Assembly: GCA_010356995.1 (NCBI GenBank)
Contig: ML996712.1
Coordinates: 75,204-139,203, forward strand
Source: Trichodelitschia bisporula
Lineage: Eukaryota
DNA: 64,000 bases
Direction: 5' to 3'
Positions 5,321-61,977 of this stretch are shown piece after piece; position 1 is the stretch's first letter; the number at the start of each line of letters is the position of its first letter. Position numbers and translations under genes: made by a program. The notes beneath the pieces were generated by a model that did not search any database, was not told the DNA's origin, and worked only from the letters and a program-made list of their open reading frames with translations.

Positions 5321-5461
5321 TGTCGAATTTGTGGCGGCAACCTGGGGTGGCTGGAGTGGAGCCAGGAGACAGGGGTCGTCTCCCGGCGATGTATATAGTC
5401 AGCTCACTTCCTACTGCTAGTCAGTTAAGCAAGTCAGTCATGTTCACACTTCATTTTAACA
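5321..5461. mobile_element. LTR family C copy, inverted relative to 2633-2773; marks the truncation point of the Copia element
   Basis: Near-identical reverse complement of 2633-2773 with TG...CA termini. The flanks (GTGAC/AGAGG) do not form a TSD. Confidence 0.88.
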
Positions 5462-28608: not shown

Positions 28609-28898
28609 ATTCTCTTTTTGCGTTTTTGCCTTGTCGTCTCATTTGCCCTGTGTCAGCTGTAAGAATTCAGCTTCCACTTCACTTTTTGCAGTGGCGAAGA
28701 GCTTCGTCGTCCGATTTCCCCCCAGACATTCACGTCGCCGAACATTCCGCCAATCGCTGACTCATCCACTCAATCACGTCACGTGGAGCGCGCGTCACCC
28801 GCGCCCCTAACGCGAACCTCGACAAATTCCGCCGCAACCGCCCTCCGCGCAGTCCCTTCCCTCCCACGCCCAAGCCACCGCCCTCCAATTCTCCACTC

Positions 28899-39361: not shown

Positions 39362-40861
39362 TCACGCCCCCCTCCCCCTCCCCCTCCCCCTCCCCCTCTC
39401 CCCAACCGCCCACCCCTCCATCTTTTTCGCCAACAAAACACACCTCCTATCCACCAATCTCCAAAACAAATCCGCCGCCCAAATCGTCGCAGCAGTCACA
39501 ATCTCCGTAGCCAGCAACCAGCCCACCTCCTTCCCAAGCATGTCCTCAGGCCGACGACGCGTCCACGTCATCCGCCACATCGCCGGCACAATCCAGAAGC
39601 CGAGCATATGGACCACGGGGCAGTGGACGAGGTACAGGGCGTAGGAAATGCGGCCGAGGTATACGGCGTAGCGGGAGGTGAAGATGCTCCGCAAGGCGTT
39701 CGTGCCGATTGAGGATGTCGCGTACACGGTGAGTAGTGCTCCGAGGCAGTGCGGGAAGCGCCACGATTCACCGTGCCAGAAACTGGGATTGAGGTGGCGT
39801 AAAATGAACTTATAGCCCGGGGCGGTGCTAGCGTGACCATAGTCCGGGACCGATAGCAGATGCAAGCCAGCGACGAAAAGCGCGCCCTTGAAGAAATCGC
39901 TCCTCGTCCGCCGCGGCGGTAAACTGATCCCAAACCTAGCCGGCGATGGCGGGGCCGCCGATTCTTCAAGCATCTTAAGCTGCGCCAGCGACGTCCCCGC
40001 AAAAAGCAACCACGCCTCCCAGCAAAACGAGAAGTAGCAGTACACCACCATGCCCACAAGCCCCACAAGCCTCATCCGCGGCGCCAGCCGCGCAAAGCTC
40101 ACCAGCGTCGCGAACAGGACGATGGAGCTGCGGAACTCGACTGGCAGGGTTCAGAGGTGCACATCGTACGGGTAGTTTTGCGGCGACCAGGCGTTGACCC
40201 AGTTCCAGGTTGCGGACAGCCAGTCGGAGAATTGCGTGCTGAAGGGGTCTTTGCGCCACGTTGGTGGTTGTGGCTCTTTGAAGCCGGGCATGTCTTGGTC
40301 TTTGAATACGGCGTGGCCTCTGTCGTACAGGCCGGCGGAGATTCAGAGCATGACGATGAATGTCGATACCACGCCCGGCAGGAAGAGGCGCTTTGCACGT
40401 CGGAAGATGGCTGAGCTTAGGCGCTGCAGACATGCGTCGTGGGACTGCTGGTGAAAGGCGCAGAGGGGCGCCCAGGATAAGGCACAGCTTGAAATGATGA
40501 AGAACAAGGTCACCATGGCGGGACCAGCTGTCATAAGGTGCAGAATCGGGATCTGTGTGATGGCGAAGTGGCGCTCGTCTGTGCCGAAGCCGACCTAGAG
40601 GCTTGAGTGTGTCGCAGCAGTGAAGTGGCGGATATACACTATGAAGGATGCATACCCTCGCATGCCATCAAGCCATGCCGTGGGCGTAGGAACGATCTCT
40701 TCATACGTGTTTGGCTGCAGGAAGCTGGGAAGGAAGGCGGCGGCGGCGCTTATTGCCGTCAGGAGCAGCCTGGCGAAGGGCGAGGCATATGAGGACGGTA
40801 GATCCTTCTCGAGGTCCAGGAATGGATCTGCCTCCACGGGGGATGGAGGATCGAGTCGCAT
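39362..40861 (-). pseudogene. Acyltransferase-3 (membrane O-acyltransferase) with three in-frame stop codons
   Basis: A single frame contains WLDGMRG, GPAMVTLFFIIS, FRRAKRL, HL*TLPVE and YLGRISYALYLVH. Stops are TAG 40595-40597, TGA 40343-40345 and TGA 40151-40153. Confidence 0.85.
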
Positions 40862-41993
40862 GGTTGACGAGGAGAGATGGCTTTTCGAGGTAAAGAATGG
40901 CTGAGTCTGAGATCGAAACCGCAGATAGACGAGACGTGACCACGGCGGTTAGCCATGCAGTGGGGAATGGGCATTATACAGGGCGCCTTGTTGACTTCAT
41001 TCCGACGCGCCGTTGCGGAATGTAAAGTGGAGAGTGGATAAGCGGATTGGCAACACGCGCGGATTCCACTCGGTGGAAGCCAGCTTCATCCTGAGATCCA
41101 ATGCGGGCTCTCGCTTCCACGACATCAGAGCATGATGAGAGCCTCAGTCATCACCAAGATGCAATATGGTAGCCAAATCGAAATTTTGGTTAACATAGTA
41201 TCTCCATCGGCCTCGATGCCCCAAGACGCGTTGATATTGTACCACCAAGCTCAGAATGTGGCCACTTTTGTACGATATGGCGATCGAGAGGAATCACACT
41301 CTAGAACAGGCGGTGTTGACCCTGGGACATTACTCGGACGCTCAATGAGGACAAGTACGGATGTACCGGGTGAAGCCATGATGGACAATCTGCTAGGAGT
41401 TATTGGCATGGCATTTGTGGATGAAATATGAGCATGCAGCGAGGCTTTTCGATGGAGATGCTGTCACGAATGTCGTTGGCAAGACCCTTGACAGCGGAAC
41501 CGCCCGTACCGCGGTTACCGCCAGCGCACTGTTCATCTGAGCGGCAAGCGCACTCACCAGAGTTCTCCGCAATGACACAACACTTACTGATCATCAGGGA
41601 AAAATTCTGTATACATTGCGCGGGACTCGATACAACTCCGCGGTGAAGGATGAGCTGGTACCGCGATTTCAATGTTCCAGTGCTTAGTTCTAATGAGTTG
41701 AACCTCCCATTCTTACTCCATCTCCCTTGCAAATTCTGGCCTCAATGATGACGGATATGTAGCTGGAAAAAGTGTTCTAAAATGACAGGCTTGAGATTTT
41801 TAATCCATTTCACGCAGAACCTCGACGGCTGGCCGAACCACTAGAGGTGACATGATTGAGGATTCATATCTTGGTCTTTAGAGCAATGAATGTGATTTCC
41901 ACTTGCCGTCACGCCTACCTGCATTGGGAGCTCCGTCATAACTGCTAGCCAGCTCCATCAACCGTCAACTACACTCGGTCAGTCTGCTCGTCC

Positions 41994-43325
41994 CTAAAGC
42001 CCATCAATCCTCCCCTCACTCGCAAACGCCGCAACAACATTAGCGAGCTGTATCCGCGCCTCCTCATCCATGATGTTCCACCGCCCCACAATCTCCACCT
42101 GCACGTTATCCTCAGGGTTCCTCAACCCAAACTCCAACCGCAGCATCGTCTCAACCCTAACATCCACCCTGAGGAGCACCACATCCGCCATCCTCACCGA
42201 GAACAGGAACTGCTTATCCCACTTCTCGGGGCCAAGCTGCAACCCCTCCCTCCCGGCCGCGGCAACCCTCGCCTCCTCCCTCGCAATTGCCAGCAAAGCC
42301 GCCGTCTCCTCCGCATACGTCCCACGCGGGTTCTTCGGCTCAAGCACCCAGACCCGTCGGCCATCCGTCCACGCCGGCCGAAACGAACTATGATAGAACT
42401 TGAACCTCAGCGGCAATCCCCCTTTACGGACCGGGCAGTACCGCGCGCCATGCCGCCGGAAATATAGCTCCAACAGCCTCGTCACGTATGCCGTGGTATG
42501 TATCGCGAGGAAGCTCGCCACGGCGCGTGCGTTGTATGGCTGCCCCGAGTTCACGAGGTCCGTTGCGGCGGTAATGGCGGCGAGTGGGCGGGCGGTTGAT
42601 TGCAAAGCGCGGCGGAAGACGGCGCGGCGCGTGTGTACGCTTACGCTGGACAGGAGTAGCCCGTCGGACTTCGTGGGGGCTCCGGGGGAGATCAGAACGC
42701 GGGCTTCGGCCCAAGGGATTTGCGTAGGCGTGGTGAGGGGGCGAGCGGCGTGAGTAATGCGGGCGCGGATGTGGATGAGGTGTGTTCTGGACCAGCGGTC
42801 GGGGCGCACGGAGAAGGAACTCTGGAGGCGGGGGGGTGGGATGATTTCCGTCTTGGATGATATGTGTGTGCCCCAGAGGCCGAGGACCGGGCCGTTGGGT
42901 GGGTAGAAGGAGGGGTTGATGTCGACGACGTCGTCATCGGTGGTGTCGGCGGGGTAGAAGAGGGAATCGACGTCGTTGACTGCCGTGTTGATGTCGGGCA
43001 TCAGACTGTCGAGGGAGTAGAGTGGCGGGTCGACTTCCTCGCCCGTGCTAATGTCCGTGAAGCAGGTCGCGTCGTGCTCGGTGACGAGGCCCAGGCCGAG
43101 ACCGGTGGTCTCGCCAAGCATGTCGTCGAGCATGTCGGCGTCGACGTTGCCGTTCATGGCTTCGGTGAGCTTATGGAGTAGTGCTGAAGAGCGTGAGTGG
43201 ATGTTCTCGTTTATGATGGCGTTCTGTGCTGCCTCGAGGAGCGAGGCTTCGATTTGGGGGTCTGCGAGCTCGTCTTCGGTTTCCTCCGGCTCGATGGGCG
43301 AGGCCATTCCATCGAGATAAGACAT
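41994..43325 (-). CDS. Hypothetical protein (443 aa): acidic N-terminus and globular C-terminal domain
   Basis: Long ORF with high GC3 codon usage. No family recognised. Confidence 0.7.
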   Translation of the reverse strand: MSYLDGMASPIEPEETEDELADPQIEASLLEAAQNAIINENIHSRSSALLHKLTEAMNGNVDADMLDDMLGETTGLGLGLVTEHDATCFTDISTGEEVDPPLYSLDSLMPDINTAVNDVDSLFYPADTTDDDVVDINPSFYPPNGPVLGLWGTHISSKTEIIPPPRLQSSFSVRPDRWSRTHLIHIRARITHAARPLTTPTQIPWAEARVLISPGAPTKSDGLLLSSVSVHTRRAVFRRALQSTARPLAAITAATDLVNSGQPYNARAVASFLAIHTTAYVTRLLELYFRRHGARYCPVRKGGLPLRFKFYHSSFRPAWTDGRRVWVLEPKNPRGTYAEETAALLAIAREEARVAAAGREGLQLGPEKWDKQFLFSVRMADVVLLRVDVRVETMLRLEFGLRNPEDNVQVEIVGRWNIMDEEARIQLANVVAAFASEGRIDGL

Positions 43326-43931
43326 CCGGCTACGCAGAGCGCAGCAAGGAAGATGCTATATGGAACAGTTTGACGGAAGGGGAGCGCGTGAGGGATTTGG
43401 AAGAGGGCGTGCTCGATATACGGAAAACGAAGAATTGCGACGTCTGCAATGGCAAACGGGCCTATATGCGTGGAGACGGTTAATACGGAAGCAGAACGTT
43501 ATAAGAATTACCTGTTGCTTCCACAAGCTCGAAAAATGAGAGTGAGTAATGGGTGCGATGTAGAGATGATGCAGAGTTGGAGGATGTTGAAGAGATGTAG
43601 TGGGATTCACGATGACTTCGCGCTCCTTCCTCCTCAGTCGCCCCCACACCCCCGGTGGATTCCAAGGCAAACGCTGAGCATCAACAGAACTCACATCACG
43701 ACCCATCTCGGACAAAAGTCATGATCAGAAAAATGTTCGCTATACGCTCAACCTACAACCTGGTATGATGTACAACTACACGCCCCCTGACACCAGAGCG
43801 TTACCAAATCTTCAAACGAGAGACCGACAACCAAAAGCCATATCTATCTCAATAAGTCAAGCCATTCGTATCAAAAGTGCCTACCCACCGTCATAACCCC
43901 AGAAACCCCAAACGCCGCCAAACGCTATCCC

Positions 43932-46634
43932 TCAATGGCGCCCATGCGCTCTCCGATGAGCTGGCGCCTTCGCAGGCGCCTTGACCTTGGCTGGGGGCTT
44001 CGCATGCAGCTTCGGCGCGGGATGATCGCCCGTCTTTGGGATAGCATTAGCACCCGTCTTGGCCTTGTCCTCGATCTTCGCATTCTCAGCCTCCGCCTCC
44101 TCATACGTCATCTCCTCCGCCTCCTCCGCCACCTCCGGCACCATCTCCTCGATCTCCTCCTCCATGGGCCGGCGGCTCCCACCCACGATCCCCACCTCCG
44201 GCAGATCCTTGAATGGCACTGGTTGGCCCAGCAAAGGCGCGTTTGTCTTGAGCAGGTCGTAGTGTAGCCGCGTCGTTTCCCAGTTCAGGTAGTCGAGTTT
44301 GTGGCCGCACCGCTTTTGCGCGAGTTCGCCGGGCTTGACGCCGCTGTCGCAGCATCCCCCCCAGCAGTCGGACCAGCGGTATATGACGGAGCGCGAGGGG
44401 TGGGGGGAGTAGGTCCGGTCGATGATGTTCCAGAGGGTTGGGATGGCGATTTCGTGCATGATGCGCGCGGAGGCGATGATGGTTGATAGGTGCTGGAAGT
44501 CGGCGAAGAAGCGGCGCGGGAGGTAGTACATGTCGCTCCAGCTGGGAGAGGGTTAGCCCTGTACGAAAGCTTTAGGTCAGTAAGGTTAACTCACCCTACA
44601 CAGAACTGCTCTGGGTCGACGTCGTAGTTCGGCAGATAGCTCTTGATCACGGTACTCGCCATCTTCGCGCGCTCGTGCTCCTTCGCGCCGAACCACATCC
44701 AATCCGGCACCCATTCCTTGACGTCGCGCATGCAGAGGTACGGAATGCTTCCTTTGTCCAGTACCCAGAGCTTGTCCATGGGCATGTCGTGGAAGCTGAG
44801 CGGCTCAACCCACGCGTCGAAATGAAAGAACAGCAGGCCCTCAACATCGTCATACGCCGGATCTTCGAGAATCAGCTTCATAGTCGCGCGCACAGGGTCA
44901 TAAATGATAAACGAGTCATCGCAGTAGTCACGCTCAATGGTAGTCTCGTTACCCAGGTGGCCACTTTCCGGCATGCTGATGTGAATCGAGTGGAAGTACG
45001 GCGAATACCCCTCATACAGCGTCTCCACGCGCTTCGGCAGATCGGCATTAAGCCGGATGAAAGCCATGGTGTTCTTAAACGGCGACTCGAAGACCGGCAC
45101 CACCGGCTCCGGCTCAACGTACTCGACAATCGGCATCGTCGCGTTCGTAAAGTCCGTGTCTAGGACTGGTGGCTCCGAGGCGTTCGGGGCGGGGATCATG
45201 TGCGTGCGCCAGTAGGTCAGCATGCCGATGAGCACAAAGGCCATGCCAACCGCGATCGCGAGGCCGACTTTGCGGAAGATGCCATGAGGGGAGAGCGAGG
45301 TCATGAGGCGTGAGAAGAAGCTGCGCTCTGCGGGCACCTCGGCGGGGGTTAGGGTTGCTTGAGCGGGTGGCTTGGGCGTGGCCTCCATGTAGAGCCAGGT
45401 GGCGAGGAAGACGGTGAGCGTGCCGGGGATGACAAGGAAGGAGAAGTTGATGTTGAAGAGGATGGGCGAGATGTAGAGCAGGATGGCGGTGGAGATGGCT
45501 GTGGCGAAGCACTTGATCAGGGCGTCGGCATCTGGATGGTTAGTTTTCCGTTTCGCTTCAGGTTCGAGGCTGAAAACTCACACTTGTAGACCGCAGTCAT
45601 GGCCAGGCCGACGAACACGTTGCTGATGATCACCATCACGGCTCCGAGGTTGGCGTATCCCGTGAAGAAGCCCGGCTCATCCGCATTGATGAAGCGAATC
45701 ACAACGTGGACAACAAGGTTGATAATGCACCCAGCCGCATACAGCGTCATGTTCATAACATGCAGCGACCCATCCACGCTCTTGCACAGCTTCTGGTTGT
45801 ACACGCTCGACACCGCGCTGAGCGTCGTCTGGAACACGAGCAGCAAGTACGTCGACAACGGGTACGTAGCACCGCCATTAGGCCCGTACTGCGTGACCAC
45901 GATACCACACACCTGCAGCACGATGGCAATCCACTGCCCGCCGACGATCTTGGTCCCCAGCGCGAAGATCATGACTACGGCAGTGATGAGCGTGGTGCCG
46001 GACTTGATTAGCTGGATGGTGCCCGGGTCGGCCAGGCGGAAGAGCACGAAGATCTAGTCCCGTTAATTGCGTTCGTCGAAAGGCGGATGCGCGTGCTTAC
46101 GGTGTTGTTGATAATGACGTAGAACAGCGCGAGATGCACGAAGCCATACCGCGTCTCCGCGGGGATTTCTTCCCTCACCGCGGCCATGAAACCCGCGGCG
46201 TCGAATCTGCGCACCGGCGCGGACTGTGTCTGGCTAGGCGTGGCGAGGAAGTCCTCCTCCTCTAGCAGCCGCGAAGAACTGCTCTCGGCGTCGTTTTCAT
46301 CGTCCTTGAACGCGGCGGGCGTCTCCTTGATCTCGATGTCCGGCTCCTGGGCGACTTCGGCGTAGGTCCGCTTTTTCCACTCGCGGAAGAAGAGATACGT
46401 GGAGAGCAGGAACTTGAGGAGTTCGGAGATGGTGACGGAGGACGAGGCTGAGAAGGCATATCTGGGTTCGTTAGTTCGGCGTTTTCTGATCAAGTTCCGT
46501 ATAGCTCACCGTCCGTTGGTCTGCGAGGCTTTGTATAGCAGACCGATGCTGACCTGGATCGCAACGAGTGCAAGAGCAGCCGCGTACGCGGGGCTCAGGC
46601 TCGACACCAGAGCCTTCACGTTAAGAAGCCTCAT
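43932..46634 (-). CDS. Nucleotide-sugar transporter (SLC35A-like) fused to a TM helix and a STELLO/DUF288-like luminal domain; 5 exons, ~834 aa
   Basis: Exons are 46634-46510, 46461-46101, 46053-45582, 45531-44595 and 44541-43932 (2505 nt, all introns GT-AG with branch sites). NST motifs: SVTISELLK, LFYVIINN, DPGTIQL.K, QW.A, VYKYADALIK. The frame continues without a stop into GLLFFHFDAW...DKLWVLDK...WSDMYYLPRRFFADF...HEIAIPT. Confidence 0.85.
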
Positions 46635-47756
46635 CCTTCAAAAAAAACTCAAAGAACGTATATCCACCACAGACACAGATCTCAAGAATAACGTAAAGAG
46701 CGTCAAAGATACCAAAAAATCTACTTGGTCATGTCTCAACTCAACAAGAGAGCGACTGAGGGGCAAGGCAAAGTCACGAAGAGAGTCTCCAGCAAATAAG
46801 GCGCCGCCGGCAAACGAAAAGCTCATATCCAACCCACCGCCATGCTCGCCGCACGGGGCCTCGCAGGCGTTAGGGGGGGAAAGCAGTTGAAAGGGGGGCG
46901 CGGACTGGTACCTTGGCTAGCTTCAGCAGCCCGCTTCACGGTCAGCCCCCATATCGCCAGCCCCTGAAGCCAGAGGCGCCCGCCCGCTTCTCCTGGCATG
47001 CGGTCTGAAAGCGAGCGCTAGGCCGCGCAGGTACAAAGCGGCTGGCGTGGCGGTGGTGTGGAGACGCCTAAGGGACCCAATTCGACGGGCCTATCAGGAG
47101 GGGCGGGTGCTGATAAGGCGTGCTGGAGGGGTGGGTGGAGGAGGATGCCGCTGCGCCATCAGTGAGCAGTTATTTTGAGGAGATCAAGGGATCAACGAGT
47201 AAATGGCATATCAATGACGATAAGGAACGGGCATCAAAGACGATCATGTCAGGGACGGGAGCGGGATGTGCAGTGTGGTGATGTTCCTGCATTTTCACCC
47301 CCTGGCCCAATCAGGCAAGATACGTAAATAGCCAGGAATCGATCCCTGCCTGTTCACGCCGGGACCAGGCCCAAAGCATCCTCACGTGTCAGCGGCCCGT
47401 CGATTCTCCGGCCCAACATCGCCCTACGATGCGCCTTCACCGCCGGCACCAGCCCTGCAGCTTCTCTAGCGATCAAGTTGGCTTCGATGGCTTCACGCGC
47501 TACTGTGCCGCCCGTTCCACACACTTGCACTTCGCCATTAACTAAACCAAAAGTGACATATCTACCAGACACGCTACCCAGGGACTACGCCCTCTACCAC
47601 CAAACGCCAGTGTTCTAGACCCTCCTCCGCCCAAAAGCCCCCCCCCAACAAGCAAAATTAAGCTAGGCATCGCCGACATCAAGCTCCATCGCAATGAACA
47701 ACAGGCACACTAGCCACGCGGCCCCATGACGCGGTACGCTATTCGCGTGGCTAATC

Positions 47757-50128
47757 TCAGAAGCGCACGTTCAGCGAAGCCAACCACGCGGCCTCCGACC
47801 CCCAGTCCCTATACTCGTTCACCTTGAGCCCGAAAAATAGATGCCCTTCGGACGCCAGGTGCCAGAGTACGTCCACGACGCGCAGCTCCGAGGCCCTACA
47901 TCCAGTCTCTAGGCCGGACGTGGATAGCAAGGCGCGGAGCGTGCCCGCAGCATGGACGAACAGCTCGGCGCTCAGGAAGCCCCACCCGCCGCAGCAGAAG
48001 TTGCTGCTCAGAAACGAGCCGTACGCTACATCGGCCACGACATTGTCATACACGAAGCTGACGTAGCTCTTCCGCACCGCGTCCACGAGATCCGGGCGCA
48101 GGAAGCGCTGCGCCGCGTGCATGCCCACGACGTCGTCGCGCACGATCGAGGTGAAGGTCACGTAGTTCCCATCCACGACGCAGTGCGCGAAGTCGTTGTC
48201 TGCGTCTTTGATGAAGAGCGGGCCGAGGATGTTGGCCTCGCGGATTGCGTAAGCGACGGTTTCGACGGCGTCTGGGGACTGCGTGGGGGCGTAGAGGAAG
48301 TCGAGCTTGGAGCGGGTGGTTGCGGGGAGGGCGTCGAAGAGGCGCTCGAAGGCGGTGGTGGAGCCGCATTGGGATTCGATGAGCGGGCGTAGGACGACGA
48401 GGACGATGCGCGATACGTTGCTTACGTCGAGGTTGGCGATGCTGTTGACGATGATGGGGCGGCCGTTGCCCTGGGATTGGTTAGAAGGGATGGATGGGGG
48501 GCTGGGGGCGCTTACGTTCAGCGTGAGCAGCTTGATGGCCCCGGAGCTGTAGACCTCCTCCATGGCACGGCCGAGCGCAGGCACCAGCACCGTAACCTTG
48601 CGATCCTTGGTCGTGAAGGGCGCATCGAGGTTTACGCGCGACACGGGCGTGACGGCCAGGTACTGCTGGGGCGGGAAGATGCCCCCTGAAAACAAGCTGT
48701 CGTAGATGCGCTCCAGCCCGTTCATGATGCAGTTTTTCTCGCTTTCCTCCGTCATGTACGGCAGGATGCGCGCGAGGCAGAAGAACTCGAACAGCGGGAC
48801 TATGTCCCAGAAAGCGTATTCGCAGTACGCGGCCTTGACTTTTTCGCAGTACATGGCGAGGATGGAGACACAGCGCGCGCGCCGGTGCTCGGGGATTGAG
48901 GTTTGGGTTAGGAACCATTGGTGTCGTACGTCTTGGAGCAGCTTTGCGATGTCTTGGAGGGGAGATTCCTGGCTTGTTTAGTCTTTGTGTCGGTTGATCT
49001 GGTGCTTTACTTACGACGAAGCAGTCGAGGAAGTCGAACACGCACAACTCGCGGTTCTCCGGGTCAACGAGCATATTTGCCAGCGTCAAATCGCCATGGC
49101 ACGGCCCGATCGGCACCTCGCGGCGTCCCAGCTGGCGAAACGAGCTCATAACGCGATCAATCTGGTGCTCGAACGTCTCAATCTCCGCCGGCGTGACAAG
49201 ACTGCTCTTCCGCAGCGCAGCCTTGATGCCCGTAGCCTTCTTCTCAAACTCAGGAAAAACATGCCTTAACTCCACCAACTCACTCAAATTCAAATTCGCA
49301 TCCACCATCTCCACCGCCGTCTCCACAAGCCACTCATTCACCGCCCGGTCCCGCTCCATCATAACATGCCTCACATCCTGAAACGGGATATACTCCATAT
49401 CCACCGTAAACGCGCCAACCTCGCCCTTCACCACCTCCGGCACGCGGATCCCATACACTTCCGGCGTACTCACCGCCCTCAGCCCCGCGGCCCTACACCG
49501 CGCGGCAAACGCAATCTGCTTCTCGATCTGCTTCAACAGGCGATTCCCGTCTTGCTTCGCGCCGACGAAGGCTTCTTTCCGCACAGCCCACATCCCGCTC
49601 GTCAGCCGCCGGATCGTCGCGTCGTCAACGTACGTCCGCGCGCTGCTGTAGCTCGGCTTCTTGACATGTCCGCCGGGCGTGGTTGGGGGGCTCGGTTCGC
49701 GCAAAGCGAGGGCGGGCCGGCGGAGGGCCTTCTGGCTTTGTGATAGTCGAGACCTCGACAATTCGAGGGTCATGTGGAGTTGCGGGCGAATGGGTACGGA
49801 GGAGCGCGCGGCGGAGAGGGTGGCTTGGAGGGCGGGGTCGGCCCAGACTGGCGCGGTTAGTATGATGGTATGGAAGGGGGGTGTTGGATGAGTGGGAGAG
49901 GGCGGGCCTACAGGCGTTGTTGACGCTGAGGTCTGCGACTGGGATGCCGGTGTGCGCATCGTGTATACCGATGATTTGCACGGCGCAGTCGCTCTTGCCC
50001 TGATTCTTGAGCGTCGGGACATGGGATTCCGCCTCGCGCTGGCCGATGCTGCCGGCGCGGAGCCGCGCTGTGGGCGGCGAGGGGGGCGGCGCCGGCGTCG
50101 CGGGATCGAGGAGGGGAGCAGGTGCCAT
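47757..50128 (-). CDS. APH/choline-kinase-like phosphotransferase fused to a degenerate sugar-nucleotidyltransferase domain; 4 exons, ~738 aa
   Basis: Exons are 50128-49912, 49847-49015, 48968-48516 and 48470-47757 (2217 nt). Kinase motifs: AVRK, MEYI, CHGDLTLANML, VFDFLD, DIAKL. NTase-like C-terminal half: VLVPALGR, FIKDADN, KSYV, FCCGGW, DWGS. Confidence 0.85.
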
Positions 50129-51903
50129 TGTGACTTCAGCTCACAGCTACTGTTTCGATGTTTGGTGTTGGGGATCGGGATGGGATCGCAATTGGATGGG
50201 AATTGGGATTGAGGACGCGGGAACAGCTTCAGGCATGCACGCACCCGGGGCTAGGGTCGACTATGTAGTAGCACGATCGCGGCGCCGAAGTCGTCGATGG
50301 GGGGTGGGCGGGAGGCGTGCTCTGGGTGCGCCAACCTTATCTTAGCGGGGGAAGCTGGGGCGGCGCCGCGGCTGCGAGTTCAATATTTGCGGTATATACG
50401 GGCGCTTTGGCGAGGGCGAGACGTGATGGTAAATTACGATGGTTACCGCTACAGGTGGGGGAAGCGAGAGGACTAGTTCTGTGATGGACTGGAGGGAATG
50501 GGCCAATGGCAGCGGCTTTTTGGACAACATGGGATGAGCTCCTCCTGATGTCCTTTCGTGATCGATGGAAGGGGTGACGTCTTTTCCTGCGGTGGGGGGG
50601 GGGTGGCGGAGTGAGTTGACGGGAGTGTGTTTCTCCTATTCTTGGGAGAGAGCGTGGGCGTGAGACATGTTCGCGGGAGATGGACAGAGTAAGTAAGCGG
50701 TTTCAGCACACGAGGATGGATGGATTATGTTACGGGAAATACGAGGCTTGAAGGCTAATTGCGCTTACGGTAGCGCCTGTCACTGCGTGAAGGCATGTGG
50801 AGCGCTGTTTGGACATGACTTGGGATGCTCTCAGAATGTGCATTGCATTTCGCAGGATCACTTCCTTCATGGCTTTCCTATCACCATCGCTTACGGAGTA
50901 CACCTCTTCCCTTCCGCTCCAGACTGATCTCAATACAGCCCCGGGAAAGCCTCTCCGCAAAAGCAGGGAATTCATCGCAGCAAATCGGCTCCGCACATGC
51001 AAACCCCATCCGCCAGGTCCAGGCCGACAAGGCTGAACGCACGTCCTCATTTCCCCCAGTAGTAGATCCCACGCCAAGCCCAGGGGTTGCGCCGCTCCAA
51101 AGGGCTGGGCAGGTGTGGGGCGGATTAACTTGAAAAGGGGCTAGCAATCACGCTGGACGCGCCGCCATGTGTTCCGGCGCTGTGTGGAGAGCTGAAAACC
51201 ATCGTGGGCAGCGAAGGGCCGAGACTGGCGGCTAATATTGCACGCTATTATTGCTGAGGGAGGTGGCGACGCTCGACACCCGCAACCGAGGTCGCCAGTG
51301 CATCTGGGGAAGACGCGGTAGGGAAAGACACACACTCAGGCTGGCATTGTGGGATGCAAATCTTCCGCTGATCGGCGAGCGCTCCCGCCCGCACCTCCGC
51401 TTCTTCAATCTCACTTATCAGCGATCTGCTGCGCCGCTTGCGAGCTTGCGTTTCAGATGAGACTGCTCGGAGTGCTCGGGCGAGCGCCATTGCGAACACT
51501 CCCAACGTAGTATAACGGCGGGTCTGCCCGCGCCCGGCGTGCCCGTAGCGCGTACCCGTAGCGTGCGAGTGATGGCGTCGGCTAAGTCAAGCCAAAATTT
51601 CGATAAGCTAGCGGGGGGCCGGGCCCGAAGCTATGCATCCCGGCAAGTGTTAGCGGATGGAATGGAGGGGGGGAGTGAAGAGGGGGTGGCAGAGTGGACT
51701 GGGCCTTAGGCGTCGACTTCGAGAAGCTAAGAAAGGAAATATGGTAAAAGGGGGGCCCCTTGATCTGGAGGGGTGACGACGTCTGATGGAAGGATAGGAG
51801 AACATCTTGGGGCTTTTGAAGCTTTGCATCGCTGCCGTCCGCGCTCACTATCACCAACTCCAAACTCCCATCTTATCCTATACCGACCAACACTGATATC
51901 ACG
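50129..51903. promoter_or_regulatory. Shared divergent intergenic/promoter region of the kinase-NTase and NTase-HAD genes
   Basis: The two genes are head-to-head and there is no credible coding region between them. Confidence 0.5.
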
Positions 51904-53763
51904 ATGGCCGGCTCAACCACCGTCCCCCCCGCCAACCGCCCCGCCCGGCGCAGCATCAAATTCGAGCAGCCCTTCGTCTACCACGCCAAAAAATCCTCAA
52001 TCAGCATCTCCCCCCCCTTCCCCACCCCCATCCGCACCTTTTCCATCGCGGACTTCTTCGCCGTCTGCTCCGCCCTTGAACTCGACTGGCTGCTTAGCCT
52101 CACAACTTCCCACCTGAAGGCACTCCTCGCCTCCCCGGATGACCCCGCCACGCGCACATATTCAGCGTCGTACTTCCCCGCGCACATCCCCCTCGACCGC
52201 GGCCGCCGGAGCATCTCCTGGCCCCTCCCCAGCACCGACAGCTCCGCCGACGTCGCCGCCTTCCTCGCAGGCCTCACGCTGCTCACCCTCGAAATCCCCG
52301 CCGCAGGCCCGGTGAGCAGCAACAAAGCCTCCCGCGTCCGCGCCAAGCTCACAACCCTCACCTTCCTCTCCGCCCTCACGTCCGCGCTGAGCGATGCCTG
52401 CCCGGCCCGGTTCCCCACCGTCCTCGCGCGGGCTAGCAGACTCCTCGTCGCCGCGGCAGAGGGGGATGTCTTGCTCGACGAGGAAGACGGCGTAATCCTG
52501 CGCGGCGCGGCGTCGCAGCTCGTGCTCGGCGCCGCGGATGGGCTCCCGCTACGGCTTAAGGACGGGCCACTGACGCCCCGCGCAACCCTCCCGAGCGCCA
52601 TACTCGTAACTCGGCCTGCGCGGCAGCCGCGCGCTCTTAGCGGGCCGAGTTCGACGCTCGTGATCCCGAGTGCGGGGCGGAGTTCGCGCTTCCCAGGGCA
52701 TAAGCCGAAGTGGCTTCTGACGATGCCGAACGGGCGGCTCATGGTCGTGGATGCTATTGCTGGACTCGACTTGAGTGGGGTGAGCCGTGTGGTGCTGGGC
52801 GTGCTAAAGGAACACGTGGACAAGCACTGCGGGAGTGACATCAGCGCGCTCCTCCGCGCTTTCGAAGACGGGCCTGAAGAACTCGCAGACATCGATCTCA
52901 GCATCGTAGTCATCAATGCCGAAACCGTCGACCAGGTTCAAACCATCGAAGTCATCCTCAACACAGCGCGCGTCTCCGGCGCGATCTTCCTCAAAGACTG
53001 CGATAACCAATTCGCGTGCGCCGTGCCAGCGGTGGACGGCGTCGCAACCCTCGAAATCAGCCGCGAGATGCAGTCTCTCAACGTGCCCGCGGGCAAATCC
53101 TACGTCGACGTCGCGCTCGACGGGAGCATCCACAACATCGTCGAGAAGGTGATCCTGGGGCCTACGTTCTGTGTCGGGGGGTACGCATTCGCGTCGGCCG
53201 CGGACTTCACGGCGCACGTCGCGCAGGCGCGGAAACTGCAAAAGCTCTCCGCGGCCGGGGATGCCGAGCTCGCGGTCAGCGACGTCATCTGGCTGAAGCT
53301 GATCAAAGCGGCAGTCGGTCAGACACCTTGCACATTCCAATCCATCCCGGTAGCCGATTACGAGGACTGGGGCACGCTGGGCGCGTGGAAGGCATACTGC
53401 GCCACCTTCCGCAGCCTATTCCTCGACATCGACGGCACGCTGGTGAAGAACTCTGGGCAGTACTTCGGGAAGACGTGGGGCGAGCAGCCGGGACTGGACA
53501 AGAGCGTGGCACACTTGCAGAACCTGTATGCCCGCGGACGGACGCAGATTATCCTGACGACGAGCCGGACGGAGGCGTTCCGCGAGGCGACGGAGCAGCA
53601 GTTGAGGGGGTTGGGGATCCCGTATGATCGGATTGTGTTTGGCATGTTCCATTGCCAGCGCGTGCTGGTTAATGACTTCGCGAAGACGAATCCGTTCCCC
53701 AGCGCCAGTGCGATTAATCTGCGGCGCGATGGCGATGAGTTGAGCGAGATGTTGGACTATTAG
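51904..53763 (+). CDS. Sugar-phosphate nucleotidyltransferase fused to a HAD phosphatase (capsule-biosynthesis-like), with an N-terminal helical domain; intronless, 619 aa
   Basis: NTase motifs: LVIPSAGRSSRFPGHKPKWLL, FLKDCDN, KSYV...IVEK, FCVGGY, EDWGT. HAD motifs: LFLDIDGTL (I), ILTTSR (II), and YDRIVFG...RVLVND. Confidence 0.9.
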   Translation: MAGSTTVPPANRPARRSIKFEQPFVYHAKKSSISISPPFPTPIRTFSIADFFAVCSALELDWLLSLTTSHLKALLASPDDPATRTYSASYFPAHIPLDRGRRSISWPLPSTDSSADVAAFLAGLTLLTLEIPAAGPVSSNKASRVRAKLTTLTFLSALTSALSDACPARFPTVLARASRLLVAAAEGDVLLDEEDGVILRGAASQLVLGAADGLPLRLKDGPLTPRATLPSAILVTRPARQPRALSGPSSTLVIPSAGRSSRFPGHKPKWLLTMPNGRLMVVDAIAGLDLSGVSRVVLGVLKEHVDKHCGSDISALLRAFEDGPEELADIDLSIVVINAETVDQVQTIEVILNTARVSGAIFLKDCDNQFACAVPAVDGVATLEISREMQSLNVPAGKSYVDVALDGSIHNIVEKVILGPTFCVGGYAFASAADFTAHVAQARKLQKLSAAGDAELAVSDVIWLKLIKAAVGQTPCTFQSIPVADYEDWGTLGAWKAYCATFRSLFLDIDGTLVKNSGQYFGKTWGEQPGLDKSVAHLQNLYARGRTQIILTTSRTEAFREATEQQLRGLGIPYDRIVFGMFHCQRVLVNDFAKTNPFPSASAINLRRDGDELSEMLDY

Positions 53764-58304: not shown

Positions 58305-59429
58305 ATGACCACCCAAGAGTCCATCCGCCTACCCTACCCCTTTCCCCAAACCGCATTTGACACCCCCCGCCTCAGCCTCCGTGAATACCGCCACTCAGAT
58401 GCCTACGCCCTGCACGCCATATTCTCCGACCCAGGCGTTATGAATTACTGGTAACGCAACCACCCCCTCCTTCCCTCACCAACCTCACCAACCCCCAGGT
58501 CAACTCCGCCTCATACAAGCACCGACCAAACGAAAGTCTGGCTCCGCAGGACCCTCGACTCGAGCAACAACGGCACAACTGACTTCATAATCACCCTCCG
58601 CGGCACGAACATTGCGATCGGCAAAGTTGGTCTCTGGCGGTTGCTTCCCGATCCTAGCACCCTCGGGTCCGACCCCAACACCCTCTGCCCTACCCTTTCC
58701 TCACCCGAAGCGGGCGAGCTCGGCTTCATGCTCGGCCAGGAGTACACCCGGTACGGGTACATGAGCGAGGCCCTGGGCGTGCTGCTGCCGTATTACTTTG
58801 AGCGGTTAGGCTTAGTGCGCGTGATTGCAGATGTTGACCCGAGGAACCTGCCTGCGAGGTCATTGCTGGTTAAAGTGGGGTTTGAGGAGAAGGGGTACAG
58901 AAAGGAAACGTTTGTTGTGGGCGGGAGGTTAGTTGATAGTGTGGATTATGTGCTTGAGCGGCACGTGTGGCAGTTGAGGAGAGAGGAGGCGGCGGTGATG
59001 GAAAGGGAGAGGGAGCTGCTAGAGGAGTTAGAGAAGATGAAGGAGATAAGAGAGAAGGCGGAGATGGAAGAGATGGGGCAGCGGGAAGAGGTGTTAGCAG
59101 AAGAGGAGAGGAAGCGGGAGAAGATGACGAAGCTGAGAGAGGAGATACTAGGGAAGAAGATGAGCTGGGCAGAATATTTCAGGGAGCAGCTAGAGAAGAT
59201 GAAGTTGGAAGAGAATAAGAGGCGGGAGGAGAAGATGAAGCGGGAGGAGAAGATGAAGTGGGAGGAGACGAAGAGGCGGAAGGAGATGAAGAAGCGGAAG
59301 GAGAAGAGGAAGCCGGGAGAGAAGAGCGAGCCGGAAGAGAAGCAGGAACCGGAACAGAAGAGGGAGCCGGAGGAGAAGAGTGAGCTGGAAGAGAAGGGGT
59401 CGCCGGATGACGGCTGGACTTTGATCTAG
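58305..59429 (+). CDS. GNAT (RimJ/RimL-type) acetyltransferase with a charged coiled-coil tail; 2 exons, ~358 aa
   Basis: TPRLSLR...FSDP.VM.YWS.PPH...IGK.G...ELGFML...YGYMSEAL...ADVDPRN...LL.KVGF. Intron 58451-58498. Confidence 0.87.
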
Positions 59430-60342: not shown

Positions 60343-61977
60343 CTACACCAGCACCCACGCACCCGCCACGGCCACAGCCACACCCCCCATCCCCACCCTA
60401 ACCCTCTCCCCCCCACCCTTCTTCGCCCCCGTCCCCGCCCCAGGCGTCGCAGTCGGCATGCCCAGATCAAACGTCGCCGTCCCCCCATTATCCAGCCCTC
60501 CCGTCCCAGTCGCTCCAGGCACCCCCACCCCAACCCCATTAACCATTACCGCGCCCGTGTGCGTCTGCTTCGCCTCCCCCGAGGCCGTCTTCGTAGCCCC
60601 AGGAATCTTGCCGGAGTCCGTGATTTCCTTAACTGACGAGCTAGAGACGTTGAATTTCGTCTGCGCGATCCCCACCGTCCCGCCGTCGATGTTGTACACC
60701 ACGTACGCGCTGCGCAGGAACGTGTCGCCAAATAAGTTAGGCGCGCCCTGGGCGGGGAGAATGCCCCATCTACACGCCGTTTTGCCGGAGCGGAAACGAG
60801 GCGGGGAAATCTTGGAGGGGAAGGGGAGGACGAATTGGCCGATTGTCGCGACAATGGTGGGCCCGTCGGAGTTGCCAAATTGGAAGTTGAAGGTTGCGGG
60901 GGAGGCGGCGAGGTCGCACGGGACGACGACGCCGTAGCGCGAGTTGTTGACTGCGCCGACGCCGGAGATAATATCCATCGCTATGTCGTTAGGGAGGTAG
61001 GTGAGCGTGGTGCCCGAGTCGAGGATGACGGGGATATCGAGGGCTTTGGCGTACTGGGCCTTTTTGGCGCCGCCGATGACGGCGATGTTGTCGAGGACGA
61101 CGGTGAAGGAAGTTATGCTTTTGCTTATGGCGTCGGGTTGGATGGGGAGGATAGTGAGGTCGCCGGTGTATTTGGCGGTGTCGATGCCGCCGAAGAGGAT
61201 GGAGCCGGTAGTTGATTCTGCCGGGGTGTTAGTTCTGGAGAGGGGAGATGGGAGGGAGGAACGCACCGAGATCGTTGAGCCAGAGGCTATACGCCCGTGT
61301 GTTGATGTACTTTTGGCTCTTGAGCTTGCTGATGAGATTGGGATACGTGCGCCCGACTTGGCTGTAGATGGATTCGCCCTGATCGAAGCCCACGCCCACA
61401 ATCCCCTGGAACTCGCCCGACGTCTCCGGCTCGCTGGTCTGCTTCGCGAGGCCCATGGTCATATTTACAACGCTCACGTCGCCAATCGAAAACACGTCGG
61501 CGATGTAGTCGCCTACAATCTGCGTCTGGTCGACATAACTAATCTCGAACAGATCGGGAATTTGCTCGACGAAGGTTGATGACTGGGTGTCGTCGAATGC
61601 CCCGTTACCACACCGGTTGATTCCGTTCCTGCCACGACATGCCTGCGCTTCGACCCATGGTAACTGTACTCCCGTTAGCCCGAGTCCTGTCGCACGAACC
61701 CTGTACGCACCCATATGTCACTCGATCCCGTGTCCAGCTGTAACGAGAACGACTGCGGTGGCGTCCCTACGGTCGCATTCACGAGATATAGCAAATTGCT
61801 CTGAGCATTGTAGAGAGTGGCGGTTACGGAAGCGCCACGGCGGTTCAGTCTAGGATGCGGCGTAAAGGTCTCGCGGCGCGAGAAACTGAGGGATAAGACT
61901 TTTGGTGTTGAGGCGGCGGCGGTGAGGGCGCTGAATGACAGCCCCGCGGTCGCGTATACGAGTCCTCCCAGCAACAT
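60343..61977 (-). CDS. Secreted/GPI-type A1 aspartic protease (yapsin/OpsB-like); 3 exons, ~512 aa
   Basis: Signal peptide, catalytic motifs LDTGSSDIW and ILDSGTT, FGDTFLRSAYVVY, and a Thr/Gly-rich stalk with a hydrophobic C-terminus. Introns 61664-61710 and 61218-61266. Confidence 0.93.

Follow-up and report, generated by a model that had tools for sequence, protein, structure and literature searches.

The bacterial NDP-heptose pathways rely on GmhA, HldE or HddA, GmhB and HddC, with heptose kinases of the PfkB or GHMP type and not of the APH fold. AmgK/MurU/MupP is the precedent for a salvage route, and the galactofuranose system of Aspergillus consists of UDP-galactopyranose mutase, the UDP-Galf transporter GlfB/UgtA and the GT31 GfsA transferases. 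Triads similar to the one considered here (kinase, phosphatase and nucleotidyltransferase) are found in bacterial capsule loci, i.e. bcbE/F/G of Pasteurella and kfoD/I/E of Escherichia coli K4. In the accessible part of the published work, kfoB/D/G are termed 'unknown'. A relay of this type has been described for a phage: according to the accessible part of the source, Araf5P is converted to Araf1,5P by the APH-fold kinase domain of AfhE, then to Araf1P by AfhF, and finally to UDP-Araf (PMC13326640).

The window analysed in this study (64,000 nucleotides of contig ML996712.1 of Trichodelitschia bisporula) contains, at positions 43932–53763, three adjacent genes that encode all five activities of interest, i.e. 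a kinase, a nucleotidyltransferase, a HAD phosphatase, a transporter and a glycosyltransferase (GT)-like domain. We propose, with a probability of roughly 60%, that genes 1–3 form one pathway, in which a cytosolic nucleotide-activated sugar is produced via a 'bisphosphate relay' and used in the Golgi. No published description of this fungal trio was found in the literature.

Gene models and expression

RNA contigs obtained from two runs of one sample span genes 1–3, and every intron is supplied by spliced joints; since the expression data are based on a single RNA sample, co-regulation cannot be read from these contigs. Gene 1 (46634..43932, minus strand; 834 aa) is composed of five exons (46634–46510, 46461–46101, 46053–45582, 45531–44595 and 44541–43932), separated by introns 46462–46509, 46054–46100, 45532–45581 and 44542–44594, with GT..AG joints in the RNA contigs. 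Its RNA contig extends as far as 47297, and the RNA-built ORF (834 aa) has the same length as P0286, with 100% identity in the queried exon. Gene 2 (50128..47757, minus strand; 738 aa) has four exons (50128–49912, 49847–49014, 48967–48515 and 48469–47757) and three introns confirmed by RNA joints (49848–49911, 48968–49013 and 48470–48514). It is covered by an RNA contig at 47538–50616, and P0271 (738 aa) is identical throughout to the RNA-supported protein. Gene 3 (51904..53763, plus strand; 619 aa, protein P0001) is a single exon, overlapped by one joint-free RNA contig at 51715–53763.

The transcripts of genes 2 and 3 diverge from an intergenic region (50617..51714, no strand assigned), whose borders are the ends of the RNA contigs and not mapped transcript starts. 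This region is a possible shared promoter of both genes.

Domain architecture of the three proteins

Gene 3 begins with a largely helical domain (52036..52623, plus strand; about aa 45–240; model pLDDT 80–97 over about aa 45–185). This domain is fungal-specific, being present in fungal alignments and absent from the bacterial homologues (approximately 350 aa); the Atlas returned no usable feature match for it. It precedes a sugar-phosphate nucleotidyltransferase domain with intact catalytic motifs (52636..53403, plus strand; aa 245–500) and a small HAD phosphatase domain with a DIDGT motif (53404..53760, plus strand; aa 501–619). The nucleotidyltransferase G-loop/Lys motif and the DxDGT HAD motif are both evident in the sequence. 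Residues R262, K269, D365, D367, E414 and K415 of the transferase are invariant in 59 sequences, and D508, D510 and G511 of the HAD domain are also invariant.

Among solved HAD-only structures, the HAD model was most similar to 9iqw_A (VIA Z 11.9, rmsd 2.7, 100 residues), i.e. AfhF of phage HY126, a D-arabinose 1,5-diphosphate phosphatase, and next to 1xpj of Vibrio cholerae (Z 10.9), while the HAD profile matched RB69 gp51 (hhalign 64%, E 6e-5). The matches to the sugar-1,5-bisphosphate phosphatase AfhF and to 1xpj lend support to the kinase/phosphatase/nucleotidyltransferase logic put forward in the original prediction.

The best match of the transferase model was 4evw_B (VIA Z 22.7, rmsd 2.6, 225 residues aligned; Foldseek E 4.8e-10; profile E 1.8e-13), with further matches to UGPase (Z 19.2), RmlA (17.9), HddC (16.1) and MurU (14.3). 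The model also resembles CTP:inositol-1-phosphate cytidylyltransferase (Foldseek E 3.9e-9, Z 18.4), PntC (Z 17.5), the phosphocholine enzyme LicC (Z 17.2) and IspD/TarI (Z 14–15), and NCBIfam returned weak kdsB and ispD matches. Given the likeness to the inositol-1-phosphate and LicC cytidylyltransferases, the group that is activated could be something other than a sugar. The product could instead be a CDP-linked non-sugar alcohol phosphate (of the inositol, alditol or choline type), imported by gene 1 and used for phosphodiester decoration of glycans, as in Lic or CDP-ribitol systems. We consider this unlikely, since the HAD domain is closest, among solved structures, to a sugar-bisphosphate phosphatase and to 1xpj, and since a route composed of a kinase and then a cytidylyltransferase would offer no obvious role for a phosphatase. 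Moreover, 4evw, the top match of the transferase, bears the annotation of an NDP-sugar pyrophosphorylase; UGPase, RmlA and GlmU score equally high.

Gene 2 carries an APH-fold small-molecule kinase domain (48699..49752, minus strand; about aa 105–440), which matched PF01636 with 60.1 bits (cut-off 23.2) and whose motifs CHGDLT..N and FDFLD are unchanged in all 10 orthologues. The profile of the bacterial kinase family matched the kinase domain of RB69 gp52 (hhalign 93%, E 3.5e-7). The kinase profile also matched the choline kinase LicA (4r77, E 4.5e-5), which speaks for a non-sugar product. The C-terminal part of gene 2 (47757..48611, minus strand; about aa 470–738) is a degenerate paralogue of the gene 3 transferase, recognized by the transferase-phosphatase profile with E 1.2e-31 (hmmsearch). 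The family-invariant Arg of 'SSR' is missing in every orthologue row covering that position (in a second alignment, an SRQ/SRF-like string was found in P0275 only), and the 'EK' of the family-invariant 'VEK' is missing in 10/10 orthologues; KDADN, FCCGG and DWG are retained. The transferase domains of genes 2 and 3 form one clade, separate from 104 bacterial sequences. By analogy with the GMPPA/GMPPB pair, the degenerate domain probably has no catalytic activity of its own and serves the active transferase in docking or regulation.

In gene 1, an SLC35A-type nucleotide-sugar transporter is followed by one additional membrane helix and a GT-A-fold glycosyltransferase-like domain. The transporter (45389..46634, minus strand; about aa 1–367) contains hydrophobic segments (Kyte-Doolittle scan) and matched PF04142 (Nuc_sug_transp) with 96 bits (cut-off 27) over aa 153–367. 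Its nearest relatives of solved structure are the CMP-sialic acid transporters (6i1r, E 6.5e-17, and 6oh2), again in line with a CDP-linked product; members of this family also transport CDP-ribitol. The extra helix (45212..45268, minus strand; aa 408–426) is the eleventh hydrophobic helix, and its hydropathy score (2.2) is the maximum of the whole protein. Its presence would place the GT-A-like domain (44217..45211, minus strand; about aa 427–740, interrupted by one intron) in the lumen.

The predicted luminal domain contains the motifs HFDAW (aa 556), WSDMYY (633), DCWG (690) and RCGH (709), three N-glycosylation sequons and seven cysteines. Judging from the family model (pLDDT 82.3), the domain family is predicted to adopt a GT-A fold, which resembles that of the Golgi GT31/GT14 enzymes: the VIA Z scores were 13.5 for CHSY3-CHPF, 12.9 for GfsA of Aspergillus fumigatus (8yrl) and 12.6 for C2GnT-L (Foldseek E 1.5e-4). 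The phosphotransferases CpsY and GNPTAB gave lower values (Z 8–9 versus 12–13.5), which argues against phosphodiester decoration. None of 24 family members matched a Pfam glycosyltransferase family, and no sequence relation to bacterial WavE or to the DUF7796-like protein was detected. Fusion of the transporter to the GT-A-like domain recurs in at least 35 long homologues of gene 1.

The domain inventory and coordinates of the original prediction were therefore correct, PF04142 and PF01636 being above their cut-offs and the GT-A, transferase and HAD domains being recognized by model and motif. Three features are additional to that inventory: the degenerate domain of gene 2, the helical N-terminus of gene 3 and the eleventh helix of gene 1.

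Bacterial modules and linkage in other fungi

Bacterial homologues of gene 3 (33–45% identity over its C-terminal 60%) and a bacterial kinase homologous to that of gene 2 were identified, and they are adjacent in loci of the surface-glycan type, in support of the original interpretation. Both genes were present at 99 of 122 loci, on the same strand in every case (99/99), with the kinase upstream in 94 and a gap of at most 100 bp in 80 of these pairs. The neighbours within 4 kb of the module included SDR epimerases/dehydratases (46 of 122 loci), DUF7796-like proteins (28), WavE (26), GT2 (21) and GT4 (21). The modules often reside in LPS-core-type gene clusters, as well as in capsule-type loci, of Vibrio, Marinobacter, Ferrimonas, Helicobacter, SAR11 and Prochlorococcus, and in some loci (e.g. 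in Helicobacter bilis, L042) they are adjoined by GmhA. The literature search revealed no published function for these modules, and a Vibrio module gave no blastn match in E. coli genomes.

In 113/113 bacterial ORFs of the cluster, the transferase is followed immediately by the phosphatase within one fusion protein, and two V. cholerae proteins from structural genomics, 4evw and 1xpj, correspond to one domain each of this fusion. Such an arrangement, with the kinase encoded first, fits a phosphatase product feeding the transferase. It is at odds with a salvage route of the AmgK/MurU/MupP style, in which the phosphatase would first strip the 6-phosphate (unless the free sugar is taken up), the kinase would form a 1-phosphate and the transferase a standard nucleotide sugar, with the mutase bypassed. 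Salvage would involve identical enzyme classes, and MurU is among the structural matches of the transferase (Z 14.3). In addition, no isomerase or synthase that would define the substrate was found within the window, and a scan of 30 window ORFs revealed no SIS domain; this result also counts against the pathway proposed above. However, the HAD domain is similar to bisphosphate phosphatases, and a standard sugar would make a dedicated transporter-transferase partner hard to explain. Of the explanations considered, we regard salvage as the least probable.

Linkage of the trio recurs in other Pezizomycotina. The three genes bear consecutive tags in Dothideomycetidae sp. 11243 (ANO11243_056460, _056470 and _056480), and lie on one contig in Microthyrium (including BT63DRAFT_425652 and _425654) and in Patellaria. 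They are also present on metagenome contig L084, where genes 3 and 2 are convergent and genes 2 and 1 divergent; in the window, by contrast, genes 1 and 2 share one direction and gene 3 diverges from gene 2. Adjacency has thus been kept despite rearrangement, at about 41–52% identity. Linkage of the trio thus extends to three or more fungal genomes or contigs besides the window, contrary to the possibility, raised in the original prediction, that the orthologues are unlinked and not co-distributed.

The gene 1 family, which includes Fusarium, Venturia, Coleophoma, Metarhizium, Ophiocordyceps and Diplocarpon, is wider than those of genes 2 and 3, so the three-gene coupling is not obligate. In Fusarium, Metarhizium, Venturia and Diplocarpon no homologue of gene 2 or 3 was present among the matches listed, a weak point against the coupling. 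Gene 3 also has a homologue on each of two further contigs (L081 and L082), whose flanking sequence (5.6 and 8.8 kb, respectively) includes no partner genes, and in Sphaceloma the homologues of genes 1 and 3 are on different contigs, of unequal length. With a wider gene 1 family and partnerless gene 3 homologues, the coupling is frequent rather than universal. These observations, together with the at least 35 long gene 1 homologues and the unrelated transferases of the bacterial modules, would agree with genes 2 and 3 acting as a cytosolic pair and gene 1 independently using an ordinary UDP-sugar, their adjacency being historical and not functional. This seems improbable in view of the adjacency that survives rearrangement on L084 and the three consecutive tags in Dothideomycetidae sp. 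11243. Furthermore, among the matches listed, the closest gene 1 orthologues (41–52% identity) are the linked ones, whereas the unlinked ones are more distant (32–38%).

An acyltransferase-3-like gene (39362..40948, minus strand) lies about 3 kb from gene 1. This O-acyltransferase, noted earlier, gives only a sub-threshold match to PF01757 (E 2e-4, 20.9 bits; cut-off 31). A counterpart on metagenome contig L088, 31% identical over 260 aa, is located between the homologue of gene 3 and the gene 2-like one. It is possibly an accessory member of the cluster. Overall, the original reading is supported in part: the domains are as predicted, and the activation logic and the linkage gain support.

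Proposed pathway and comparison with known systems

In the single pathway that we favour, the gene 2 kinase would phosphorylate the anomeric hydroxyl of a common sugar phosphate to give a sugar 1,n-bisphosphate, the distal phosphate of which would be removed by the HAD domain of gene 3. The nucleotidyltransferase of gene 3 would then join the resulting sugar-1-phosphate with an NTP, and the NDP-sugar would be imported into the Golgi by the transporter half of gene 1, whose luminal GT-A domain would add the sugar to a glycan of the secretory pathway. We infer the order of these steps, as well as the substrate, the nucleotide, the import of the product and the acceptor (a wall glycan or glycoprotein).

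The bacterial modules are direct homologues of the fungal genes, organized as a tight operon pair. They differ in lacking the N-terminal domain of gene 3 and the pseudo-transferase domain of gene 2 (86 kinase ORFs of typical length, approximately 289 aa), and the fungal luminal domain has no sequence relationship to their partner transferases (WavE, DUF7796-like, GT2 and GT4).

With AfhE/AfhF of E. coli phage HY126 (analogues RB69 gp52:53 and gp51), as far as the accessible part of the source describes them, the fungal trio shares an APH-fold kinase, a small HAD and a nucleotidyltransferase. However, no relation at the sequence level links the gene 3 transferase to RB69 gp53, and the RB69 and HY126 genes were not found by tblastn. 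The fusions also differ (transferase-phosphatase and kinase-pseudo-transferase in the fungus, transferase-kinase and a free phosphatase in the phage), and, in contrast to the phage UDP-D-arabinofuranose pathway, an arabinose-5-phosphate isomerase was not found in the fungal window. The acceptor is DNA in the phage, whereas a Golgi glycan is proposed for the fungus.

The NDP-heptose pathways have in common with the trio a relay of kinase, HAD phosphatase and nucleotidyltransferase acting on a sugar bisphosphate, and HddC is among the structures that match the transferase of gene 3 (Z 16.1). In contrast to these pathways, the fungal cluster has no isomerase, and its phosphatase, which is joined to the transferase, is a small HAD of the AfhF/1xpj type.

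With regard to the luminal domain, the nearest cluster is STELLO (PF03385), with a similarity of 0.97 in language-model features and a TM of 0.60/0.72 in predicted structure (Atlas), although PF03385 matched none of the 24 members of the luminal family in HMMER at E up to 1. To our knowledge, STELLO proteins carry no transporter fusion.

The galactofuranose system of Aspergillus is similar to the proposed pathway in combining a special nucleotide sugar of cytosolic origin, a dedicated Golgi transporter and luminal GT-A enzymes, and, after CHSY3-CHPF, GfsA (8yrl) is the structure that best matches the luminal domain of gene 1 (Z 12.9). The Aspergillus donor is formed by a mutase from UDP-Galp, whereas the trio would employ a relay of kinase, phosphatase and transferase; moreover, the transporter and transferase, which are separate proteins in Aspergillus, are fused in gene 1.

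Gene structures and linkage among fungi

The cluster at positions 43932-53763 of the window consists of three genes, all of which are covered by spliced contigs from two runs of one sample (the runs were taken as RNA by guess, and contig depth provides no basis for ranking the expression of genes 1-3). Gene 1 (43932-46634, minus strand), with introns at 46462-46509, 46054-46100, 45532-45581 and 44542-44594, encodes a product of 834 aa (P0286), and gene 2 (47757-50128, minus strand), with introns at 49848-49911, 48968-49013 and 48470-48514, encodes one of 738 aa (P0271). The splice joints of both genes read CT..AC on the plus strand, i.e. GT..AG on the minus strand, and since these joints were found in contigs crossing genes 1 and 2, all of the introns are observed and not predicted. 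Gene 3 (51904-53763, plus strand) is intronless and encodes 619 aa. The window is fungal: database proteins identical to its gene models are annotated as hypothetical proteins of Trichodelitschia bisporula (EJ06DRAFT_266508 and EJ06DRAFT_484915).

Analysis of other fungal sequences revealed that the linkage recurs. A 7.6-kb metagenome contig (L084, ~49% identity) carries homologues of genes 3, 2 and 1 side by side, in orientations unlike those of the window, and consecutive tags (_056460, _056470, _056480) mark the homologues of all three in Dothideomycetidae sp. 11243. All three were also found on one contig in Microthyrium microscopicum (contig sized 2,415,436; gene 3 is BT63DRAFT_425652 and gene 1 is BT63DRAFT_425654) and in Patellaria atrata (contig sized 1,490,246). 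Partial arrangements were detected in two further loci, one (L083) with convergent homologues of genes 3 and 2, the other (L088) with homologues of gene 3 and of an acyltransferase-3 together with a gene 2-like piece. At two loci (L081 and L082), flanks of 5.6 and 8.8 kb around a gene 3 homologue show no partners, and the Sphaceloma homologues are found on contigs that differ in size. Distant relatives of gene 1 (32-38% identity) are present in Fusarium, Venturia, Metarhizium and others, with no homologue of gene 2 or 3 among the matches listed. The copies of genes 2 and 3 in the chytrid Irineochytrium annulatum (P0050, P0273, P0274) nest within sequences of lichen fungi (Lecanoromycetes) and lie on contigs of only 10-21 kb; they were therefore treated as possible assembly contamination or fungus-to-fungus transfer. 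Taken together, the expression of the genes, the conservation of their domains and the recurrent linkage show that the three-gene cluster proposed in the original prediction is real and beyond chance.

The remaining genes recognized in the window are not related to glycans: they encode a Clr2 silencing protein (25599-27506), a RING-finger protein (28761-30482), a Snf7-domain protein (34109-35920), a GNAT acetyltransferase (58455-59426) and an aspartyl protease (60346-61458). A 453-aa open frame without a Pfam match (41997-43355, minus strand) separates the acyltransferase-like gene from gene 1. ORFs at 3629-5398 (minus strand), containing GAG-pre-integrase (E 3.7e-7) and retroviral-polymerase SH3-like (E 2.7e-4) domains, are the remains of a copia-type retrotransposon, and the segment 32001-34000 displays a strong composition skew (GC skew -0.289, AT skew -0.233), far from the values of the rest of the window.

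Predicted cytosolic enzymes encoded by genes 2 and 3

PDB searches with the three raw single ORFs gave nothing useful, and family profiles were required. The C-terminal 60% of the gene 3 protein (P0001) shares 33-45% identity with bacterial nucleotidyltransferase-HAD fusion proteins of ~350 aa. In 59 aligned sequences the following transferase residues are invariant: R262 and K269 of the G-loop, D365 and D367 of the KDCDN motif, and E414 and K415 of the VEK motif. The full-length model (pLDDT 83.5, pTM 0.81) placed the transferase domain closest to 4evw_B (Z 22.7, rmsd 2.6, 225 residues), a protein from Vibrio cholerae RC9 whose entry names it as an NDP-sugar pyrophosphorylase. Further matches, by VIA and Foldseek, comprised UGPase, inositol-1-phosphate cytidylyltransferase, RmlA, GlmU, PntC, LicC, HddC, KdsB and IspD, and given this mixture the nucleotide and the phosphorylated substrate are not readable from the fold. 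None of the Pfam transferase models reached its cut-off on gene 3 (PF12804, 15.8 vs 27); the G-loop, the acidic site and the modelled fold nonetheless point to a sugar-phosphate nucleotidyltransferase.

The HAD domain that follows contains a DxDG motif (D508, D510, G511) invariant in the same 59 sequences, and T553, N590 and D591 are also conserved. Pfam HAD models remained below their cut-offs (20.7 vs 27.5). Among the best 50 structural matches listed for gene 3, the only HAD-only entries were 9iqw and 1xpj: 9iqw_A, the D-arabinose 1,5-diphosphate phosphatase AfhF of phage HY126, gave Z 11.9, with 100 of 123 residues aligned at rmsd 2.7, and the V. cholerae entry 1xpj gave Z 10.9. By its motifs and predicted fold, the domain belongs to the small AfhF/1xpj-like type of HAD phosphatase. 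The N-terminal 245 residues of gene 3 are fungal-specific and were confidently modelled as mostly helical at ~aa 45-185; a search of the ESM Atlas with this domain yielded no usable feature match, and the structure rows had TM values of at most 0.37.

It is worth mentioning that the closest solved structure for the transferase (4evw) and, after AfhF, that for the HAD domain (1xpj) are both V. cholerae structural-genomics proteins of unknown function. As they match the two domains separately, V. cholerae may possess the module in split form.

The gene 2 product was recognized by the APH model PF01636 (60.1 bits vs a cut-off of 23.2), and its kinase residues H323, G324, D325, N330, D344 and D347 (HGDLT..N and FDFLD) show no variation across the 10 orthologues. 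The domain behind the kinase is a homologue of the transferase of gene 3 (E 1.2e-31). Despite this homology, we rejected it as an active transferase: none of the orthologue rows covering the family-invariant G-loop position has the Arg, and all 10 orthologues lack the Glu-Lys of 'VEK', which is likewise invariant in the family. The blocks KDADN, FCCGGW and DWGS of this pseudo-transferase are strictly conserved. In a FastTree analysis of the transferase part, 17 gene 3 and 10 gene 2 fungal domains grouped into one clade distinct from the 104 bacterial sequences (support 0.955). The joint fungal clade and the conserved blocks argue, at the level of sequence, that the dead domain is a fungal-lineage duplicate maintained under selection, for which we propose a docking or regulatory role. 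Three gene 2 orthologues (P0273-P0275) run past the pseudo-transferase into the alignment of the HAD start (columns 206-250), where 'FVDlDG' is replaced by 'WIDLE' or 'WVELE'; this tail resembles an inactive remnant of a HAD domain.

The transporter-glycosyltransferase fusion of gene 1

The protein P0286 matched PF04142 over aa 153-367 with 96 bits, above the Pfam gathering cut-off of 27, which places its transporter part among the SLC35A-type nucleotide-sugar transporters; the solved structures nearest to this part are those of CMP-sialic acid transporters (6i1r at E 6.5e-17). A crude hydropathy scan detected overlapping hydrophobic segments at aa 6-361 and one more strong hydrophobic helix beyond the transporter, at aa 408-426. 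In the SLC35A-type family the transporter C-terminus is cytosolic; if this holds for gene 1, the additional helix would place the remaining 400 residues in the lumen. Three N-glycosylation sequons and seven cysteines lie in the part beyond the helix.

With the luminal-domain exon as query, exhaustive HMMER searching returned only 151 cluster representatives at E <= 1e-3, some of them fused to a transporter and others stand-alone with an N-terminal hydrophobic stretch. When 24 members were compared with Pfam, no family matched the domain, neither STELLO nor any other glycosyltransferase family. The model of the family (pLDDT 82.3, pTM 0.77) adopts a GT-A fold, and VIA matched it, with 196-235 residues aligned in each case, to (i) CHSY3-CHPF (Z 13.5), (ii) the Aspergillus fumigatus galactofuranosyltransferase GfsA (Z 12.9), (iii) C2GnT-L (Z 12.6), (iv) XylT1 (Z 12.0), and (v) B3GalT5 and Fringe (Z ~11.8). 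Foldseek paired the domain with C2GnT-L at a probability of 1.00 (E 1.5e-4), yet with a TM of only ~0.41, and the nearest ESM Atlas clusters are STELLO-like. Thus, the VIA and Foldseek matches and the Atlas neighbours bear out the expected luminal glycosyltransferase-like domain at the level of fold. When a DxD motif was looked for in the family alignment, the sole nearly invariant Asp was that of the 'HFDAW' motif; the title of PDB entry 3otk describes GT14 enzymes as metal-independent.

Two further candidate kinships of the luminal domain were rejected: with WavE (PF07507), for which hhalign gave 0.3% (family against four WavE sequences) and 0.2% (single exon), and with the DUF7796-like bacterial neighbours described below, for which hhalign found no relation.

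The fusion of a transporter with a glycosyltransferase domain recurs in at least 35 long homologues of gene 1. A gene 1 homologue of Ophiocordyceps camponoti-leonardi, P0133 (1080 aa), carries an extra C-terminal NAD-dependent epimerase/dehydratase domain (aa 739-931), which is reminiscent of the SDR genes beside the bacterial modules but may reflect a merged gene model.

Bacterial and viral relatives and comparison with known relays

Scanning a single genome of each species with a sequence pattern detected at least 160 stretches encoding a relative, of which 80 were kept, and a metagenome scan added more. Clustering of the ORFs within 4 kb across 122 bacterial loci revealed that the most common neighbours are the transferase-phosphatase, the bacterial counterpart of the C-terminal part of gene 3 (113 loci), and an APH-like kinase of ~289 aa (104 loci), followed by an SDR epimerase/dehydratase (46), a DUF7796-like protein (28), WavE (26), and glycosyltransferases GT2 and GT4 (21 each); GmhA was present in only 7 of the 122 neighbourhoods. 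In the 99 loci containing both kinase and transferase-phosphatase, the two genes always share a strand (99/99), and in most cases the kinase lies upstream (94/99) and no more than 100 bp separate the two (80/99). Genes for a heptosyltransferase, a Kdo transferase, a Kdo kinase and an O-antigen ligase surround the pair in Vibrio superstes, Marinobacter vinifirmus and Ferrimonas aestuarii. These LPS-core-type neighbours in three genera bear out the general claim of the original prediction that kinase/phosphatase/nucleotidyltransferase triads occur in bacterial surface-glycan loci.

The bacterial operon pair is unnamed and widespread, occurring in Vibrio, Marinobacter, Helicobacter bilis, Campylobacter, SAR11, Prochlorococcus, Bacteroidota and CPR bacteria (examples among loci L001-L133 are L002:9130-12051, L044:9138-13151 and L075:9131-12099); WavE or an SDR epimerase frequently comes next. 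On NCBIfam the SDR neighbours gave only sub-threshold matches of GalE, LegB and HldD type, which do not name the sugar. The DUF7796-like proteins showed no relation to WavE by hhalign, WavE was absent from 14 control genomes, and a Vibrio stretch spanning kinase, transferase-phosphatase and WavE had no match in E. coli genomes by distant-mode blastn.

Open-access papers and bioRxiv yielded no published function for the bacterial kinase/transferase-phosphatase module. In three reports on surface glycans, the K4 capsule loses its fructose branch when kfoE is deleted (PMC8858990), kfoB, kfoD and kfoG are termed unknown (PMC10609508), and a different gene, HS1.08 of Campylobacter, is assigned as a fructose transferase (PMC7901785); the module is described in none of the three.

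Among phages, tblastn detected the pair only in the viral single-cell record of Marine virus AG-345-E15 (MH319741.1:19991-21842), where a kinase (26.5% identity) and a transferase-phosphatase (37.3%) are adjacent; five records gave HAD-only matches, and none was obtained in RB69 or HY126.

The best explanation of these observations, to which we assign a probability of roughly 60%, is that genes 2 and 3 would run a cytosolic bisphosphate relay (sugar phosphate to 1,n-bisphosphate, to sugar-1-phosphate, to NDP-sugar), and that the gene 1 fusion protein would import the resulting NDP-sugar and then transfer it. Arabinofuranose, fructofuranose and heptose each agree with some of the evidence, and no one of them is favoured.

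A more far-reaching proposal is considerably more tentative, and as a whole is rather unlikely to hold. It supposes that a group of Pezizomycotina (Dothideomycetes, Leotiomycetes and lichen-forming Lecanoromycetes) might make a nucleotide sugar new to fungi by a relay of bacterial/phage type, the donor perhaps being a furanose or ketose (NDP-arabinofuranose, NDP-fructofuranose) or a heptose. The donor might then pass directly through the transporter-glycosyltransferase fusion, unique in its kind, into an undescribed cell-surface glycan, and the pseudo-nucleotidyltransferase on the kinase might unite all three cytosolic activities as a single regulated complex. If true, this would reveal an overlooked fungal cell-surface sugar and its donor in a large group that includes plant pathogens and lichen partners.

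The enzymes of the cluster would also provide a first handle on the kinase/phosphatase/transferase module of bacterial LPS-core and capsule-type loci. The gene 1 fusion is well suited to examining whether substrate is channelled from import to transfer, and the conserved dead domain of gene 2 is a candidate regulatory pseudoenzyme.

Activation, import and transfer together form a known kind of system. The combination of bacterial-type enzymes, a kinase-borne pseudo-transferase and a transporter-glycosyltransferase fusion was found undescribed in open-access papers and bioRxiv, where a search for transporter-glycosyltransferase fusions of filamentous fungi likewise gave none.

In the phage route to UDP-D-arabinofuranose, as given in PMC13326640, an isomerase turns Ribulose-5-P into Araf5P, the APH-fold kinase domain of AfhE converts Araf5P to Araf1,5P, the HAD protein AfhF converts Araf1,5P to Araf1P, and the transferase domain of AfhE converts Araf1P to UDP-Araf. 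The likeness to this relay extends to the kinase, whose profile matched RB69 gp52 (hhalign 93%, E 3.5e-7), and to the HAD part of the module, which matched RB69 gp51 (hhalign 64%) and HY126 AfhF (Z 11.9). In contrast, the module transferase has no sequence match to RB69 gp53, and tblastn did not link the two families. No SIS domain (arabinose-5-phosphate isomerase, GmhA) was found among the 30 window ORFs scanned. Membership in the NDP-heptose pathway was rejected, as the kinase has an APH fold and not a PfkB or GHMP fold, and the window ORFs scanned include no SIS or GmhA ORF. By these profile and fold tests, the fungal module can be likened to both the phage and the NDP-heptose relays, and would work as they do while not belonging to the NDP-heptose pathway and probably not to that of the phages.
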